Part shown: piece after piece, positions 5,631 to 32,321 of the stretch
Layout: each line of letters opens with the position of its first letter
How positions within the stretch are numbered: position 1 is the first letter of the stretch
NCBI GenBank assembly: GCA_965216325.1
Contig: OZ244160.1
Location: 2,976,001-3,040,000 of the forward strand
Direction of reading: 5' to 3'
DNA length: 64,000 bases
Origin: Coraliomargarita sp.
Lineage (GTDB): Bacteria > Verrucomicrobiota > Verrucomicrobiia > Opitutales > Coraliomargaritaceae
Notes under the pieces: model-generated
Told to the model about the DNA's origin: nothing
Database searches by the model: none
What the model saw: the letters and a program-made list of their open reading frames with translations, nothing else
Translations under genes and position numbers: made by a program

Positions 5631-7769
5631 TTACAAAAAAGCATACAGGCAGAACCAGCCGCCGACTGAGGCAACGATGGTAAGCCCGAGGGCGATCCAG
5701 ATGATTTTTCTGACTCGGTGGCTCTCATCGAAGCTGCACTGGGCACTGACGGGGAGGGTGGCTCGCTTGGTGAGGACGCGTCCAAGTGCCGCTGAGATGA
5801 GTGTGCGCCCGTTCACTGCCCAGCCGGATGCATCCAATAGGGGAGCAAGGGTGCGCTTACGAAGTTTGAGCCAGGCGATGATCATCGACGGTAGGGAGAT
5901 CATTAAGACCATACTGATTAGAATCAGTGGTAGCTGCCAGAGGGGGAGTGCTTTCATTGTCTCAAATAGAGACGCGAGACCGGCTCCAAGTGCACCGAGT
6001 GCAATGCCACCGGCAGCCAGCATGCCTGCGAGTCCTCCGGCTCCGCTGAGTGTTGTTGGTTTTGCCGCTGCGTTCTCGCTGCCGACGTTTTTGACGCCGC
6101 TTTCAAGTTGCTTCTGAATCGCTTTGTCTCGGGTGACTGCCCATTTCTCGAGCTGATCGCCAATGAATCTGCCGACCCGGACGTAGGGCATGAGGAAGGC
6201 CTCGCCGATGCAGATCGGGTTTTGAATGATTCGGACTACTGTAGTGTCCCAAAGCTTACCCTTTTTATCGAGAAAGATACCGTTGCGACCGACGATGAGA
6301 TTGGCGGAGTCACCAGCGGTAAACACCGAAGCAATGTAGAATTTCCCTGGGGAGTCTTTGCGGTGACACTGGCAATAGACTACAAAGGCGCGGGAGAGGG
6401 CAGCGAGTGCAGCATGCTTGCCGGGATCGGCGACTTTGAGGGTCAACTGGCACTCACGACCATCGAGGTAGAGTGTGCCCGCTTGAAAGATCGCGCTCCG
6501 TTCCTTTGCGTAGAAGTCGTTGAAGTTGACGAAGTTATTGAGGATTTGAACGAGGTCGCGGTGGAAACGGGCAAGCTGCTCGACGGCATCGACCGATTTC
6601 ATCCGTGGCGCGAGCGCGAGGTCTTCGGCTAGCATTGCTGCGAGCTGGTCCTGTAGATCCGATTGCAACAAGGCTCGTGCGCGGGTGATTCCGAGCTTTT
6701 CAACTCCTGTTTCCGGCTTGGACTGGCGCCATTTACGATAGCTGCTGAAGCGCAGCTTCACTTCTTGCCACTCTGCTCGTGAGAGTGATTCTGGAGTCCC
6801 AAACTTCAGTGGTTCGATAATCTGACTGAAGAGCGCGTCGAAGCGACTTTGCCACTCTGGGTTGATTCCGCCTCTGAGTGGCAATTCTGCTTCCGGTCCA
6901 ACCGTTGCCAAGGGGAGGCCTTCGATTTCCTGATTGCTGCTCGAGAGGTCGGTATCGGCGATCTGTTTGTAAAGTGCGACATCACGATTCAGCGGCTCAA
7001 TCGCACGTGAGTCGAAGGCCGCAAGCTGGCAGCGGGCGTAGAAATCGTCTAGCTTTGCCTCGATGGCTTTTAAGCTTTTGAAGGCTTTTGGGGTGGATTC
7101 CGCGAGTGGAAATACTTCGTTGTTTGCTTCGGTTTCACCCTGTGTCCACCAGTCATTATAGGCATTCAGCTCTTTGAAAAAGCTATCCAGTTTCTGTTGT
7201 CCAATGCCAGGTGTGCCGCCGCGGTCGGTGTCTGCGCCGACGGTATCCATAATCTCCTGAATTAACTGCTGGAGCTCTTCGCTATCGACGGAATCCTTGG
7301 AAATGACACCGTCGCCGTTGTAGCGGGATTGGCCGAAAATCTTGGCGGTGTTGGCGGATTGTGCGACCGAGATGTGCGTTGCATCGGCACTACCTGTATT
7401 CGCCAGTATCTGCTTCGCGGAGGCGAGTAGGGCGCCACCCTCGTCATCATCTGCGCGAATTGCATCCAGTGGTAAGTCACCTCCATCAAATAGAGATTCC
7501 GGCTTTGATAGGCGAGCGAGCGTCCATTGCACCGCCGTTAGCATCTCTTCGATACGCACGCGGCCATCTGCATCATGATCGATTAAAGCGAGTGTTTTGC
7601 TGTCAATCTCCAAGCCATTGACGGGGCAACTGAGTGCGACCCATAACTTTGGATCGAGTGTCTCGAGGGCGCGTAGGTCCTCGACGCTGTTGAGCTGAAC
7701 TTGAAAAATGCCCCCGCTGTGGCGCAGTTGCCAGGGGTGCTTGGATTTGAGGGCGTTGAGCTTAAGCAT
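5631..7769 (-). CDS. Conserved hypothetical membrane-anchored protein with EF-hand-like loop
   Basis: 712-aa ORF; DHDADGRVRIEE motif; C-terminal hydrophobic helices. Confidence 0.75.
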   Translation of the reverse strand: MLKLNALKSKHPWQLRHSGGIFQVQLNSVEDLRALETLDPKLWVALSCPVNGLEIDSKTLALIDHDADGRVRIEEMLTAVQWTLARLSKPESLFDGGDLPLDAIRADDDEGGALLASAKQILANTGSADATHISVAQSANTAKIFGQSRYNGDGVISKDSVDSEELQQLIQEIMDTVGADTDRGGTPGIGQQKLDSFFKELNAYNDWWTQGETEANNEVFPLAESTPKAFKSLKAIEAKLDDFYARCQLAAFDSRAIEPLNRDVALYKQIADTDLSSSNQEIEGLPLATVGPEAELPLRGGINPEWQSRFDALFSQIIEPLKFGTPESLSRAEWQEVKLRFSSYRKWRQSKPETGVEKLGITRARALLQSDLQDQLAAMLAEDLALAPRMKSVDAVEQLARFHRDLVQILNNFVNFNDFYAKERSAIFQAGTLYLDGRECQLTLKVADPGKHAALAALSRAFVVYCQCHRKDSPGKFYIASVFTAGDSANLIVGRNGIFLDKKGKLWDTTVVRIIQNPICIGEAFLMPYVRVGRFIGDQLEKWAVTRDKAIQKQLESGVKNVGSENAAAKPTTLSGAGGLAGMLAAGGIALGALGAGLASLFETMKALPLWQLPLILISMVLMISLPSMIIAWLKLRKRTLAPLLDASGWAVNGRTLISAALGRVLTKRATLPVSAQCSFDESHRVRKIIWIALGLTIVASVGGWFCLYAFL

Positions 7770-7820
7770 TTAACGTTTTTGTATAGTAGTAATTCGTTCG
7801 ATGTTAAGATAATTCATAAG

Positions 7821-7897
7821 CTAGGGGCGCTGCTTGCGGCGCCCGTCCTATGGAACAGAATACCCACACGATGACGGGCTTCGCGAGCAAAGCCCCT
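7821..7897. repeat. REP doublet (family A), right copy interrupted by the IS110 element
   Basis: ctaggggcgctgcttgcggcgccc ... gggcttcgcgagcaaagcccct, continuing as acgcg after the IS at 9374. Confidence 0.8.
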
Positions 7898-8021
7898 GCT
7901 ATGTTCGTTTCTGTCAAGAGTGTAGAAGCGTGTGAGTGTTTTTACATAAGATAAGTGGTTTGTTTTGATTGCAATCGTCTTTGAGCGTCCACCGCGCATG
8001 GCCTCGGAGTTTCGATGATCC

Positions 8022-8169
8022 GGGATAACCTGCTATCCGTGTTTCTGAGTGTTTCTCAGAAGAGCACACTATGACCTATCCATTGGGTCATTCAAAAGCT
8101 TGGTGGCGAAGTGGCCTATTCTACAAAATCGTTGTGTTGGCAACAGGGGCTTGGTCAGACTCACTCCGC
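8022..8169 (-). ncRNA. Putative bridge/seek RNA of the IS110 element
   Basis: Two internal-loop hairpins; loop strands AAGCCCCT/GTAG match target, GTCAT/ATAGCAG match donor junction; transcript ends unknown. Confidence 0.72.
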
Positions 8170-8233
8170 ACAAAGGAAAACTGCAAAAGAACGTTAAAAT
8201 CAGAGGGTGAAGGCCTTTAGCGTTGGTTCGGAC

Positions 8234-9322
8234 TTATGGGTTTTGTCTGCTTATCAGTCCGAAGTCTTCGAGACTGCATTGGCCAGTGCGTATGCGCCAC
8301 CAGTCCACGGCGAACTGCCGGGCGATGGCCACGGCAATTTTCTTGCGGGTCGCCTTACTGGTGGTCTCGTCGCTGAGCTTGGCCTGCCATTTACGCACCC
8401 CACTGTAGCCGGGATTCCACCGGATCAATAACCAGGCGCACTCTTGTAGCATATGCCGCAGGCGGGGACTGCCGTGTTTGTTGATCGAGCCCTGGAAACG
8501 CCGATTTGCACTAGTGTCTTCGCTTGGGCACAGTCCGGTAAAGGAACTGACCGCCTTGCGGTTGTTGAATCGCTTCCAGTTGCAGACCTCACGTTCGATC
8601 TGTTCATAGAGGACCACCCCCATGCCTTTAGGCAGCACCCGTTCCGGCTCGAGCGCTTCGATACGTTCTTCGATGTTGCTGATTAGCTCGCTAAAGTGCA
8701 GGCAGTTTAACCGCAGTGGCTCCAGCAGGCTGATCAAAAAATCGTCGAGCTGTTCGAGTAGCTGCATCCATTTGCGCGGCTTCCACCAGCCGCTGGGTAA
8801 GGGTTGATCGTAATACAGTCCCAGACTCTTACCACGCTTGGCCGCACGGCCACGTTCTTTGACGAAGCTTTCACGCTGCCGGGTTAGGCTGCGGTGACGC
8901 TCTTCTTGCTCGCTGGGCACACGCACGACACTGAAGCTGCGGTCATTGCCCCGCAGATAGCCGTCCAGACTCAAGACCATTTGCAACGCATCACGCGCGT
9001 CGGTCTTTACCTTCTTACCATGAGTGTCCCAGTTGATCGGGCGGATTACGTGGTTGTTCACGCCCATCGCCTTGAGCTTGCGGTGCAGGCTGTAACCAAA
9101 AGGACCGGCCTCGTAGCAACTTTGCAACTGCTCGCACTGAGTGCTCAGCTGCTTAATCCATCGAAGGAAGATATCAGGCTTCATGCGCTTCGCGCGTGAA
9201 GGGGCGCTGCTATCGATCTTCATGACCACCACGTAGGTGCTCGCATGCACGTCAATGCCAAGCTTGATTACTGTGCCCAGTGCGTTCTTAGTTGTCCGTG
9301 TAGATGATGTGGGGTTTTGCAT
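8234..9322 (-). CDS. IS110-family DEDD recombinase
   Basis: GIDVH, CYEAGPFG, KTDARDA; C-terminal FTGLCPSEDTS...G.INKHGSPRLR. Confidence 0.93.
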   Translation of the reverse strand: MQNPTSSTRTTKNALGTVIKLGIDVHASTYVVVMKIDSSAPSRAKRMKPDIFLRWIKQLSTQCEQLQSCYEAGPFGYSLHRKLKAMGVNNHVIRPINWDTHGKKVKTDARDALQMVLSLDGYLRGNDRSFSVVRVPSEQEERHRSLTRQRESFVKERGRAAKRGKSLGLYYDQPLPSGWWKPRKWMQLLEQLDDFLISLLEPLRLNCLHFSELISNIEERIEALEPERVLPKGMGVVLYEQIEREVCNWKRFNNRKAVSSFTGLCPSEDTSANRRFQGSINKHGSPRLRHMLQECAWLLIRWNPGYSGVRKWQAKLSDETTSKATRKKIAVAIARQFAVDWWRIRTGQCSLEDFGLISRQNP

Positions 9323-9432
9323 AAGTTTATCATCATAGCACTTCCGTGCTCCTGATAAACGCCCATGTCATCTACGCGATCTTTCTTCGCCTTGTCGCTT
9401 GCTCCAATCTGCGAGCCCGCTTTTCTAAGGTC

Positions 9433-11508
9433 GTGGATTTTAAACTCAGTAGTGACTACGCTCCTCAGGGAGATCAGCCGGAGGCGATCAAAGCATTGGT
9501 CGATTCGCTGCGTTCGGGGACGAAGTATCAGACGCTGCTGGGGGTGACTGGGTCGGGTAAAACCTTCTCGATGGCGAACGTGATTCAGGAACTGCAGCGT
9601 CCGGCGCTGATCATTTCGCACAATAAGACCTTGGCGGCTCAGCTTTACTCCGAGTTTAAGGCTTTCTTTCCTGAGAATGCGGTCGAGTATTTTGTTAGTT
9701 ATTACGATTACTATCAGCCTGAAGCCTATATTCCACAGACGGATACCTATATCGAAAAAGACTCCTCGATTAACGACGAGATCGAGCGTCTGCGGATTGC
9801 GGCTTCGTCATCACTGATCAGTCGTCGAGATGTGATCGTGATTGCTTCAGTGTCGTGTATCTACGGCCTAGGCTCTCCGGAAGACTTCAAGGAGATGATG
9901 CTTCCGCTTGAAGTTGGGATGGAACTCTCGCGTGATACTTTTTTGGAGCGACTGGTTGAGATTCTCTACGAGCGCAATGACGTCGATTTTAAGCGAGGCA
10001 GCTTCCGGGTGCGTGGCGATGTGGTGGATATATATCCTGCTTACATGGAAAGTGCCATCCGTGTAGAGTTCTGGGGCGATGAACTCGAGGCGATTTTTGA
10101 ATTGGATCCTTTAACGGGGGAGACCGCTGGGCGGTTGGAGATGTTCCATCTGTATCCAGCGACTCAATACGTTACGCCAAAGGATAAAATTGAAAACGCG
10201 GTAAAGGGTATTCGGGCCGAACTGGATGAGCGAATCGCATGGTTTGAGTCGCAGAATTTGTTGCTGGAAGCGCAGCGGATTAAAATGCGCACTGAGTATG
10301 ATATTGAGTTGCTACAGGAAATGGGCTTCTGCACTGGGATTGAGAACTACTCTCGTTACCTGTCTGGGCGAAAGCCAGGTGAGCGTCCGTTCTGCCTGAT
10401 TGATTTCTTTCCGAAGGATTTTCTGCTCTTTGTTGACGAAAGTCACGTAACACTGCCGCAAGTTCGTGCCATGTATAATGGCGATAAAGCACGCAAAGAA
10501 CGCTTGGTTCAATACGGCTTCCGTTTGCCCTCTGCTTTGGATAATCGGCCGCAAAAGCTGGAAGAGTTCGAGTCCATCACAGGGCAGACTGTGTATGTAT
10601 CGGCGACTCCTGCGCAGCATGAGTTTGATGTGTCTAAAACGATTGCCGAGCAGGTGATTCGCCCGACCGGCCTGCTGGATCCTGTGATGGAACTACGCCC
10701 GATCAAAGGACAGGTTGAAGATGTGATGGGAGAAGTCCGCAATGCTGCGGATGAGGGCGAACGCACCTTAATCACCACGCTGACCAAGCGCATGTCCGAG
10801 GATCTCACCGATTACCTGCGTGAGGCCGGCCTGAGTGTCGAGTATCTACACTCAGATATCGATGCGATTGAGCGTGTTGAGATTCTACGTCGATTGCGTA
10901 AGGGCGACTTCGATGTTTTGATTGGGGTGAATTTGTTGCGTGAAGGTTTGGATCTTCCAGAGGTTGCCTTGGTTGGTATTCTCGATGCCGATAAGGAAGG
11001 CTTCCTACGCAGTTCGACGAGTTTGATCCAGACGGCCGGTCGTGCCGCACGTCACGAGAAGGGACGAGTAATCCTGTATGCCGATAATATTACGGATTCG
11101 ATCAAGCACACGCTTGAGACCACCGATTACCGCCGTGAGAAACAAATCGCCTACAATGAAGCGCATGGCATCACTCCGAAGTCCGTTCAACGCGGGCTTG
11201 ATGAGAGCCTGCATGCACCTGGCAGTAAGCGCTACTCGCAAGAGGATGACGAGCCATTGCTGGTTGCTGAATCCGATGATCGTGATGTCGCTGAGGTGAT
11301 CGCCGAAATGGAAGAAGAGATGTTGGAGGCGGCACGAAAGCTCGAGTTCGAAAAAGCCGCACTGATTCGAGACCAAATTGAGATTTTGCAATCCGGTAAA
11401 ATGGACACCGCAACCGGCGCAGCCAAAGCCAAGTCCTCCGGAGGCAAGCGGCGTAAAGGAAAAGCCGTCTACAATGCCAAAGGCCTGCCGAAGAAGCGCA
11501 GGAAATAA
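9433..11508 (+). CDS. uvrB: Excinuclease ABC subunit B (probable GTG start 9433)
   Basis: LLGVTGSGKT, YYDYYQPEAY, VDESH, QTAGRAAR. Confidence 0.97.
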   Translation: MDFKLSSDYAPQGDQPEAIKALVDSLRSGTKYQTLLGVTGSGKTFSMANVIQELQRPALIISHNKTLAAQLYSEFKAFFPENAVEYFVSYYDYYQPEAYIPQTDTYIEKDSSINDEIERLRIAASSSLISRRDVIVIASVSCIYGLGSPEDFKEMMLPLEVGMELSRDTFLERLVEILYERNDVDFKRGSFRVRGDVVDIYPAYMESAIRVEFWGDELEAIFELDPLTGETAGRLEMFHLYPATQYVTPKDKIENAVKGIRAELDERIAWFESQNLLLEAQRIKMRTEYDIELLQEMGFCTGIENYSRYLSGRKPGERPFCLIDFFPKDFLLFVDESHVTLPQVRAMYNGDKARKERLVQYGFRLPSALDNRPQKLEEFESITGQTVYVSATPAQHEFDVSKTIAEQVIRPTGLLDPVMELRPIKGQVEDVMGEVRNAADEGERTLITTLTKRMSEDLTDYLREAGLSVEYLHSDIDAIERVEILRRLRKGDFDVLIGVNLLREGLDLPEVALVGILDADKEGFLRSSTSLIQTAGRAARHEKGRVILYADNITDSIKHTLETTDYRREKQIAYNEAHGITPKSVQRGLDESLHAPGSKRYSQEDDEPLLVAESDDRDVAEVIAEMEEEMLEAARKLEFEKAALIRDQIEILQSGKMDTATGAAKAKSSGGKRRKGKAVYNAKGLPKKRRK

Positions 11509-31745: not shown

Positions 31746-32321
31746 CTAGCAAGAAGGAACTAAGTCTTCCCAACCCAGCTCATCTTGCAGCCATTCAGGT
31801 TGAGGATATTTATTCTCTATTAAACTATCTCCAAAAAGTGGCCTATAATTCCGATTCAGAATCCAGTCAGGCCATTCTTCATTCAACGCTAGTAGTTCTT
31901 TGCGATACGGATTGAGGTAGATGTAGAGTGCAAATTGCTCCATTTCCACATCCGGACGAAGCCGATGCTCAAAGAAATTGGCCTGCCATTTCAGGTCGTG
32001 GGAATTGAGGGCCTGCTTCGTCTTGCTTTTGAATTTCTGGATCACCTGCGACAGCGAGAGTCGACTGCCGAGTGAAAACAGCAGGTGAATGTGATCAGGC
32101 ATGATCGTGCCGCAATGTAGATCGATGTCGTGTTGATCCTGATGCTCACGTAGCTGACTTTTGATCGCATTGCTGATCGTATCCTCGGATAAGCCGAAAC
32201 TTCGATCAGCGGTTGTCAATGTCACAAAGTAACGCGCTCCTTCGATGGACGCGCGGCCTTTGCGCAGGTCGGCGGTCTTGCGATATGGTTTAGATGGAGT
32301 GGATTGGTCTGGTTGCCCCAT
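31746..32321 (-). CDS. REP-associated tyrosine transposase (RAYT)
   Basis: LRKGR.S..G.RYFVT, MPDHIHLL (HUH), WQANFFEHRLR, YIYLNP; REPs on both sides. Confidence 0.9.
   Translation of the reverse strand: MGQPDQSTPSKPYRKTADLRKGRASIEGARYFVTLTTADRSFGLSEDTISNAIKSQLREHQDQHDIDLHCGTIMPDHIHLLFSLGSRLSLSQVIQKFKSKTKQALNSHDLKWQANFFEHRLRPDVEMEQFALYIYLNPYRKELLALNEEWPDWILNRNYRPLFGDSLIENKYPQPEWLQDELGWEDLVPSC

Follow-up and report, generated by a model that had tools for sequence, protein, structure and literature searches.

An IS110-family insertion sequence with an IS1111-type layout and a predicted guide RNA matched to a REP subfamily in Coraliomargarita

In a 64,000-nt stretch of DNA from Coraliomargarita sp. 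(GCA_965216325.1, contig OZ244160.1, positions 2,976,001-3,040,000, forward strand; hereafter the window), positions 7898-9373 are very probably an insertion sequence of the IS110 family that is active and RNA-guided and has the layout of the IS1111 group. The genome carrying the window, a single contig of 3.06 Mb, holds nine nearly identical copies at one short target, which is found mostly at the end of one subfamily of repetitive extragenic palindromic sequences (REPs). Downstream of the recombinase gene lies a region with the features of a bridge or seek RNA, whose first loop matches both strands of the target, and in relatives of the element these matches follow the flanking DNA. An earlier note on this DNA had proposed an IS110/IS1111 element with the logic of IS621 and the seekRNAs, and the Pfam domains, catalytic residues, predicted fold, layout and guide-flank covariation described below all agree with it. 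Its sequence strings and coordinates were correct on recomputation; the non-coding region measures 336 nt.

The relatives come from genome records and from metagenomes. From the latter we used the best 80 of at least 556 confirmed relatives (from at least 599 matching stretches), most of them in one clade. The non-coding regions of 12 genome-record relatives were aligned with that of the window (alignment A1), and a covariance model, R1, was built from 11 of the 12 aligned relatives, using only the three helices that looked sound, i.e., both stems of loop 1 (outer and inner) and the inner one of loop 2. The 100 R1 hits, 26 from a search of 33 sources and 74 from metagenome loci, make up the table of guides and flanks, from which L057 (same contig region as L055) and L110 (a partial hit) were dropped, as were loci where an end was not found or where the contig stops there; many metagenome contigs stop a few bases past the element. 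Ends and flanks of the relatives were set by pattern, and occupied sites were compared with empty ones only within the element's own genome. Counts per locus overstate independence because kin share guides, and the counts per distinct guide are the fairer ones.

The predicted guide RNA and its two loops

In searches with R1 the RNA follows the recombinase gene, with 26 hits over the 33 sources and 74 over the 80 metagenome loci. A search of the pooled sources (65 hits in 66) gives a 65-sequence alignment, in which 89.0% of the cells of the three helices are paired, compared with 70.9% after shuffling and 28-49% when the partners are slid; 20 of the 25 base pairs have changed on both sides. This alignment was fitted to R1, which favours the R1 structure, but the three helices are convincing because the slid controls are low and the double changes many. 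All three helices, the one in loop 2 being TTCTGAG/CTCAGAA (8061-8055 with 8049-8043), covary, and the earlier note was right to place a structured guide RNA downstream of the recombinase, one that is conserved in relatives. We infer that a bridge or seek RNA of about 160 nt is encoded in the 3' non-coding region and expressed from it. Rfam gave no family for positions 7600-9600 at E<=1.

The first stem-loop carries the putative target guides. Its 5' strand, AAGCCCCU, is identical to the left half of the target plus the core and would therefore pair with the opposite strand. As a measure of the match in relatives, we took the longest perfect contiguous run against the reverse complement of the core and flank. 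Among the 75 loci with at least 9 nt of right flank, this run is at least 8 nt in 47 and at least 6 nt in 54. With one locus for each of the 33 distinct 5' guide 9-mers, the mean run is 6.06, compared with 2.56 for shuffled flanks (maximum 3.58 in 2000 shuffles). The guide equals its own flank over 10 nt in L112 (CACGCGGCCU), L086 (GCAGCGUCCU), L021 (CGACACCGCU) and L132 (AGAGACUCCU). The 3' strand matches its own left flank over at least 4 nt (2 nt plus the core) in 62 of 70 loci, 4 nt being the commonest length and 13 loci reaching at least 6 nt; over 22 distinct 3' guides the mean run is 4.68, compared with 2.68 after shuffling. The matches exceed chance; across relatives, the strands of loop 1 change along with the flanks. 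The prediction that the target loop reads both strands of the target, made in the earlier note from matches on both strands, is strongly supported by this covariation.

The main exceptions are 17 of the 75 loci in which the run of the 5' strand is at most 3 nt, and these count against a guiding role. About seven of them (L017, L050, L046, L055, L130, L131 and L049) have an extra A between the bases that pair with the core and match otherwise. Among the other low scorers, L045 and L027 are broken or decayed, the end of L015 was mis-set by the pattern, and a few have single mismatches adjacent to the core. Guides with the extra A, which include that of L048, end in ..C-A-U where the target has ..C-T, with GACAC versus GACCC in L050 and L017, and their remainder tracks the flank.

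The assignment of loop 2 as a donor loop is partly supported by the sequence comparison, and its left-end strand is less certain than its right-end strand. This has to be weighed against an unlikely, though not negligible, alternative in which only the first stem-loop guides, as in a short seekRNA, while the protein reads the ends mainly through the subterminal repeats and the second stem-loop is a scaffold for protein binding that resembles the ends in part by coincidence. The 3' strand AUAGCAG argues for a donor loop: the pentamer in the RNA equals the right-end pentamer in 76 of 78 loci (73 AGCAG/AGCAG, 3 AGGAG/AGGAG; the other 2 are mismatched), and L046, L021 and L103 represent three independent double changes, from C to G in both the RNA and the right end. 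The 5' strand GUCAU points the same way less sharply. Over 49 loci it pairs with the left end at 5 of 5 positions in 7, i.e., the window copy and its nearest relatives, and elsewhere mostly with one mismatch or wobble; 4-5 of 5 pairs in most loci compares with about 1.25 expected by chance. There are also compensating changes. In 19 loci of the large metagenome clade GAUAU faces ATAAC with four pairs, one of them arising from a change at left-end position 3 (G/A with C/U), and in L135 and L130 a T at left-end position 1 goes with a matching A in the RNA; several other loci have that A without the T. Finally, the matched pentamers, one at each end, coincide exactly with the terminal extensions that lie outside the subterminal repeats.

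A number of results nevertheless tell against a second guiding loop, and most of them favour the seekRNA-like alternative. The donor 5' strand lacks the core and is imperfect against the left end in most clades, the pairing of the large metagenome clade includes one constant mismatch, and in some clades the strand differs while the left end stays constant. The closing stem drawn in the earlier note, GGAUA/UAUCC, is not supported over the family: 47.6% of its cells are paired, compared with 47.3% after shuffling, and there is no covariation. The fold of the single sequence is not unusually stable (z = +0.86; 80 of 100 shuffles are at least as stable). The minimum-energy structure draws loop 1 as the earlier note had done, but puts three hairpins in place of its loop 2, and one of these, AUGACC/GGUCAU (8086-8091 with 8071-8076), buries the proposed left-end guide. 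In addition, the long bipartite subterminal repeats are conserved, and seekRNAs are reported to be 82-96 nt long with matches to the target only, with the suggestion that recognition of the ends differs between families (PMC11187229). Of the earlier proposal for loop 2, the match of AUAGCAG to the right end and the inner stem stand, the match of GUCAU to the left end is imperfect outside the nearest relatives, and the closing stem is unsupported.

How loop 2 is closed can be described further for single copies. In the window copy GGAUA/UAUCC can form (composite duplex -11.9 kcal/mol), and one compensating change was seen by eye, in L033. The two rival closures, the hairpin AUGACC/GGUCAU and a 3' hairpin GGAU..AUCC, do not exceed shuffles in the 65-sequence alignment. 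Duplex folding of each sequence suggests clade-specific closing helices, such as CUGGC/GCCAG and UGCCG/CGGCA, which are not alignable in register. The linker AUGACC (8086-8091) repeats the left-end sequence and is a perfect complement of GGUCAU, and this pairing is possible in several clades, not in all. We also considered a "handshake"-like base after AUAGCAG. It equals the first base of the flank in 70 of 78 loci, but 68 of these are G/G and the informative loci give 2 matches and 8 mismatches, and the candidate was rejected.

It can be speculated that the clade, i.e., Opitutales plus a large soil and freshwater metagenome branch, has a distinct architecture within the IS110 superfamily, although we regard this as distinctly improbable. 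Here, the target and the right end would be fully RNA-read, and the left end would be read by a 5-nt, core-less strand that tolerates mismatches. That strand would alternatively pair with the upstream AUGACC, forming a self-closing switch opened by the protein or the donor, and the left end would be recognised mainly via the bipartite repeats.

Target sites and copies in the host genome

The element's own genome contains nine full-length copies, each matching bases 1-1476 of 1476; eight of them show no difference, and the ninth differs at one position. All nine share their ends, with CT at either junction and AAGCCCCT to the left, and none lies at an unrelated target. The bases after the CT of the right junction are AC in eight copies and TC in one, and nothing other than the 2-nt core is duplicated at the junctions. 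It had been noted earlier that excising 7898-9373 restores the end of a REP, with CT at both junctions. This is confirmed, and the uninterrupted 10-mer AAGCCCCTAC is in addition found at 34 empty sites in the same genome.

The left flank of the window copy on the plus strand reads ...GGGCTTCGCGAGCAAAGCCC-CT, where the REP hairpin is directly followed by the core. With up to 4 mismatches, the 26-mer REP is found at 74 places in the genome. A hairpin with the arm GGGCTY precedes 6 of the 9 occupied and 21 of the 34 empty sites, a second repeat (..TCGAAGGCAAGCAAAGCCCCTAC) accounts for 2 and 8, and the remaining 1 and 5 are of other kinds. Although a sister REP subfamily, ending in ACGCCCCTAC, is found 21 times in the same REP context, it carries no insertion; only the AAGCCCC subfamily is occupied. 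The element therefore discriminates at two bases within the stretch matched by the RNA.

These sites bear on a second alternative, to which we give hardly any credence, in which the protein recognises the structure of the REP hairpin and the matches in the non-coding region are picked-up REP fragments rather than guides. The left half of the target is indeed the 3' arm of a hairpin, a target stem-loop is reported to add specificity in ISPpu10 (10.64898/2026.03.19.712850), and several relatives (L033, L040 and L010) have palindromic targets. However, 3 of the 9 occupied and 13 of the 34 empty sites are without the GGGCTY arm, while the sister REPs have the same hairpin shape and stay empty. In addition, guide and flank covary over 33 and 22 distinct sequences, and the matches are always found on the two strands of one internal loop with covarying stems. 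In the distant relatives L033 and L040 the target, too, forms one arm of a long palindrome, and a second copy of the site, inverted and unoccupied, is present a few dozen bases off.

A second relative is present in the same genome. The tenth match of R1 is weak (31 bits) and belongs to a single-copy, diverged element (L010 462-1996, at about 2.77 Mb) with a 384-aa recombinase. Its loop-1 strands, CUCCCCUCCU and ..CAAG, match its own flanks, AG-GAGGGGAG and ..GTCA-AG, and the restored target is the hairpin CCCCTCCT-CGTCA-AGGAGGGG. Two relatives in one cell therefore have different guides and different sites.

The target had been called a REP associated with a RAYT (REP-associated tyrosine transposase). 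The name holds because a gene scoring as such, a 191-aa frame at L145 1411-1986 (about 1.68 Mb; NCBIfam NF047646, 89.5 bits, cut-off 80), has the target REP on both sides. The region L145 1340-2060 contains doublets on both sides of this gene, each consisting of an inverted target REP and a variant REP, and such doublets of oppositely oriented REP variants are a REPIN arrangement. The 3.06-Mb genome has 16 matches to PF01797 (Y1 transposase). Their places include window 31977-32234 (minus strand) and at least 11 others. Three of the matches have equal scores and lie in open frames of 346-361 aa.

It is very improbable that the copies are inactive relics of an old burst whose RNA no longer works, given that eight agree at all 1476 positions and the ninth at all but one, that the six listed copies keep an intact reading frame (377-aa open frames, no stops) and the catalytic residues are kept, and that a marine metagenome run holds a near-identical copy with one other letter over about 1330 bases. 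Three negative results fit the relic explanation and weaken the case for present activity: contigs of runs X1, X3, X4 and X5 over window 7300-9900 showed no empty-site or circle joint, among 24 sequencing runs none recorded as RNA contains the element, and a scan of 7700-9600 found no sigma-70-like promoter site where 0.9 are expected. A promoter at the circle junction was considered, formed by TTGACA of the right end, a 17-nt spacer and TGACAT, and judged by eye to be too weak (second hexamer 3/6). The conserved TTGAC needs no promoter, because the subterminal repeat accounts for it.

Contig depth over the element, which is not copy number, is 3487.8 in run X4 with 377-417 in the flanks (about 8-9x), and 277.6 in run X3 with 17.8-23.4 in the flanks (about 12-16x); this is only a hint at differences in copy number between samples. 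Relatives at E<=1e-40 are found in 16 of 301 sampled genomes of the host's order (its own included) and in 3 of 18 in the host's family.

Anatomy, recombinase and relation to known systems

The features of the window copy are listed in Table 1. The recombinase gene is the sole long reading frame in the element, with 51 nt of non-coding sequence upstream of it compared with 336 nt after the stop codon (8233-7898). On the minus strand, the order is target left half (..GT), AG, ATGACAT, left repeat and recombinase gene, followed by the non-coding region, right repeat, ATAGC, AG and target right half (GGGCTT...). Family-wide, the ends are AG-ATGACAT or AG-ATAACAT on the left and CATAGC-AG on the right. 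The subterminal repeats are imperfect and bipartite (GGGAG..TTGTCAnG): those of the window copy are identical at 12 of 18 positions with a 2-nt gap, and the ungapped identity across 62 loci is 5-14 of 18. The pair is absent from the 25 longest inverted repeats listed by a repeat search.

Table 1. Features of the window copy, its guide RNA prediction and its target (window positions).
Feature	Position	Strand	Remarks
REP hairpin of target	7876-7895	plus	GGGCTT, 8-nt loop, AAGCCC; 3' arm = target left half
Core CT, target-side copy	7896-7897	plus	AG in element orientation
Insertion sequence	7898-9373	minus	1476 bp including one core copy; excision restores AAGCCCCTAC
Right-end terminal extension ATAGC	7898-7902	minus	putatively read by donor-loop 3' strand
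Right subterminal inverted repeat CTCTTGACAGAAACGAAC	7903-7920	minus	conserved block CTCTTGAC in alignment A1
Conserved core of predicted bridge/seek RNA	8012-8174	minus	target loop, linker, donor loop; R1 match 136.9 bits
Putative donor-binding region	8023-8081	minus	inner hairpin 8069-8066 and 8061-8055 with 8049-8039, supported
Putative donor closing stem GGAUA/UAUCC	8081-8077 with 8027-8023	minus	
Donor-loop 3' strand AUAGCAG	8030-8036	minus	identical to right-end extension + core
Donor-loop 5' strand GUCAU	8071-8075	minus	complements left-end bases 1-5 (ATGAC), core unmatched
Predicted target-binding stem-loop	8106-8169	minus	outer stem GCGGAGTG.../...CACTTCGC (8169-8156 with 8118-8106); inner hairpin 8144-8131, inner stem GTTG/CAAC
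Target-loop 3' strand GUAG	8121-8124	minus	complementary to CT-AC, core + 2 nt
Target-loop 5' strand AAGCCCCU (DNA AAGCCCCT)	8145-8152	minus	identical to target left half + core
Recombinase gene, 362 aa	8234-9322	minus	DEDD RuvC-like domain + C-terminal domain with conserved Ser
Left subterminal inverted repeat GGGCGTTTATCAGGAG	9349-9364	minus	
Left-end terminal extension ATGACAT, 7 nt	9365-9371	minus	AG-ATGACAT or AG-ATAACAT in relatives
Core CT, copy counted with element	9372-9373	plus	
Target right half AC	9374-9375	plus	then ACGCG after element end ...ATGTCAT-CT

Membership of the IS110 family follows from the Pfam domains, the catalytic residues and the predicted fold. The N-terminal RuvC-like DEDD domain PF01548 scores 29.2 bits (cut-off 29, residues 22-163) and the C-terminal PF02371 52.9 bits (cut-off 21.3). 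Across an alignment that includes 19 homologues (48-80% identity), residues D24, E71, D108, D111 and S271 do not vary. S271 lies in GLCPSEDTS, and the next residue is A, S, D, G or N across the homologues, not the usual G. The NCBIfam model NF033542 (IS110 family RNA-guided transposase) aligns over positions 2-337 of 343 with 137.8 bits (E 4.7e-40); this is 2.2 bits below the curated cut-off of 140, a small mark against the assignment.

Structurally, the AlphaFold model of the recombinase (mean pLDDT 80.9) is closest to the solved bridge-RNA recombinases. The top ten Foldseek matches in the PDB are all IS621 or ISCro4 recombinases, aligned over the full length with E-values of 3.4e-10 to 5.8e-9, TM scores of 0.56-0.58 (query) and 0.63-0.66 (target) and a structure-based identity of 15-18%. 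A single-sequence search of the PDB (phmmer) gave no match at E<=0.01, and a profile search gave a weak link to IS621/ISCro4 (E 0.001 and 0.0049). Among named proteins, those called "IS110 family transposase" in Coraliomargarita strains come closest (70-72% identity). An attempt to name the element via plasmid annotations was given up, as it yielded only distant IS110-like families (ISEc45, ISRel9 and ISSso6), whose named elements are 25-29% identical to the recombinase.

An IS1111-type layout is supported by the short left end, the long 3' non-coding region, the subterminal repeats, the 7-nt left extension and a guide order in which the complement of the top strand comes first: in element orientation, AAGCCCCU (complement of AG-GGGCTT) precedes GUAG (same as ..GT-AG). 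The element departs from the description of the IS1111 group in its bipartite imperfect repeats, its 5-nt right extension, its longer protein and the lack of a G after the catalytic Ser. It is placed by layout and is not a proven member of the group.

Compared with ISPa11, ISEc11 and ISKpn4 of the IS1111 group, which use a seekRNA (Siddiquee et al. 2024, PMC11187229), the element shares the long downstream non-coding region, the subterminal repeats, the 7-nt left extension and the placement of the top-strand complement 5' of the bottom-strand match, and with ISPa11 also a REP target, in that case the REP of P. aeruginosa. Terminal extensions in the group are given as 7 bp left and 3 bp right, whereas here the right extension is 5 nt plus the core, although the convention for the core may differ in that paper. 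The repeats here are bipartite and imperfect, whereas those of the group are 11-13 bp and near perfect; the protein has 362 aa, compared with 330-350, and GL-P----SA in place of S/T-G; and the host belongs to another phylum.

With IS621 of E. coli (PMC11208160) the element shares the DEDD and Ser residues, the fold (8wt6, 8wt9), the CT core and an RNA with a target loop, predicted here, and a donor loop, putative here. The target is in both cases the 3' arm of a REP plus its tail, ATCAGGCCTAC for IS621 and AAAGCCCCTAC here, with ...CCTAC in common, and in both the long 5' guide matches the target left half plus the core and the short 3' guide the core plus 2 nt. The differences are that the RNA is predicted downstream of the recombinase gene here and lies upstream in IS621, that the present element has long subterminal repeats, and that the structure-based identity is low, as given above. 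Read in element orientation, the order of the guide strands is reversed because the element sits the other way round to the CT core. All four guides of IS621 include the core, whereas the putative left-end guide here does not.

The elements ISPpu10 and ISPpu9 of P. putida (10.64898/2026.03.19.712850; PMC12288879) are similar in inserting into REPs, in having the 3' arm of a stem-loop as target left half, in the duplication of a CT core (AG on the opposite strand) at the junctions and in being present in several identical copies per genome, theirs often within REP pairs. In the ISPpu10 preprint (10.64898/2026.03.19.712850), the left half of the target is formed by the 3' arm of a stem-loop, and the CT core comes next. 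Both elements belong to another group, the IS110 group, without long subterminal repeats and with the RNA upstream, and of the insertions described here 3 of 9 are at sites without the hairpin arm.

Some further features of the window copy concern its left end and its neighbours. A 22-nt inverted repeat, 77% complementary, pairs 9297-9318 with 9357-9378. The outer arm is the left terminus plus flank (CGCGTAGATGACATGGGCGTTT in element orientation), and the inner arm (..CCCCACATCATCTACACG) falls on codons 2-8 of the recombinase gene. Whereas the N-terminus of the protein is otherwise variable, the inner arm CCCACATCATC hardly changes among relatives. This repeat could act as a hairpin masking the start of translation in read-through transcripts, or it could duplicate the left end at the DNA level. 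In L018 the left-end motif AG-ATGACATGGGAGGAGTTG is present twice, about 200 nt apart, at 1239 and 1438 nt upstream of the predicted RNA. The window copy sits in a divergent intergenic region between uvrB (9346-11508) and a minus-strand gene at 5631-7769. The likely uvrB start (near 9433) follows the left end of the element by about 60 nt, and the insertion may have separated uvrB from its former promoter.

Proposed mechanism and meaning

We suggest that the RNA is produced from the 3' non-coding region and bound by the recombinase. The loop-1 strand AAGCCCCU would pair with one target strand over 6 nt plus the core, and GUAG with the other strand over the core plus 2 nt. The second stem-loop would read the joined ends of the element, AUAGCAG corresponding to the right end plus the core and GUCAU complementing the first bases of the left end. 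If IS621 and the IS1111 group are a guide, the RNA-bound DEDD/Ser recombinase would use the same chemistry to excise the element as a circle, and the circle junction ...ATAGC-AG-ATGACAT... would then recombine with AAGCCC-CT-AC sites, i.e., the 3' arm and tail of one REP subfamily.

The mechanism is known, and the element is not new in kind because REP-targeting elements with bridge or seek RNAs (IS621, ISPpu10, ISPa11) are already published. REPs have long been known as targets of the IS110 family (PMC11208160, PMC12288879), and the guide logic has been shown for IS621 (PMC11208160) and for IS1111-group elements including the REP-targeting ISPa11 (PMC11187229). Bridge RNAs were predicted by Durrant et al. 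2024 in 93.0% of the IS1111-group elements of ISfinder (PMC11208160). We found no description of this clade in the titles and abstract openings of the literature on IS110/IS1111 guide RNAs or on verrucomicrobial insertion sequences; the figures and tables of Durrant et al. may cover relatives.

The element is a new and clean example of its kind from a bacterial group that has been little studied. With it, Verrucomicrobiota gain a well-documented natural bridge/seek-RNA element, with a recombinase at most about 30% identical to named plasmid elements and 15-18% to the solved recombinases. As a natural data set it is unusually clean, with nine copies that are almost identical, 34 empty sites, a sister REP subfamily left untouched, a differently programmed paralogue in the same genome and about 75 relatives with 33 guides. 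This makes the recombinase and its predicted RNA a reasonable candidate orthologue for tool mining. Our knowledge of the mechanism is unchanged by it, and what the element offers is a compact system for studying how IS1111-type elements recognise their own ends.

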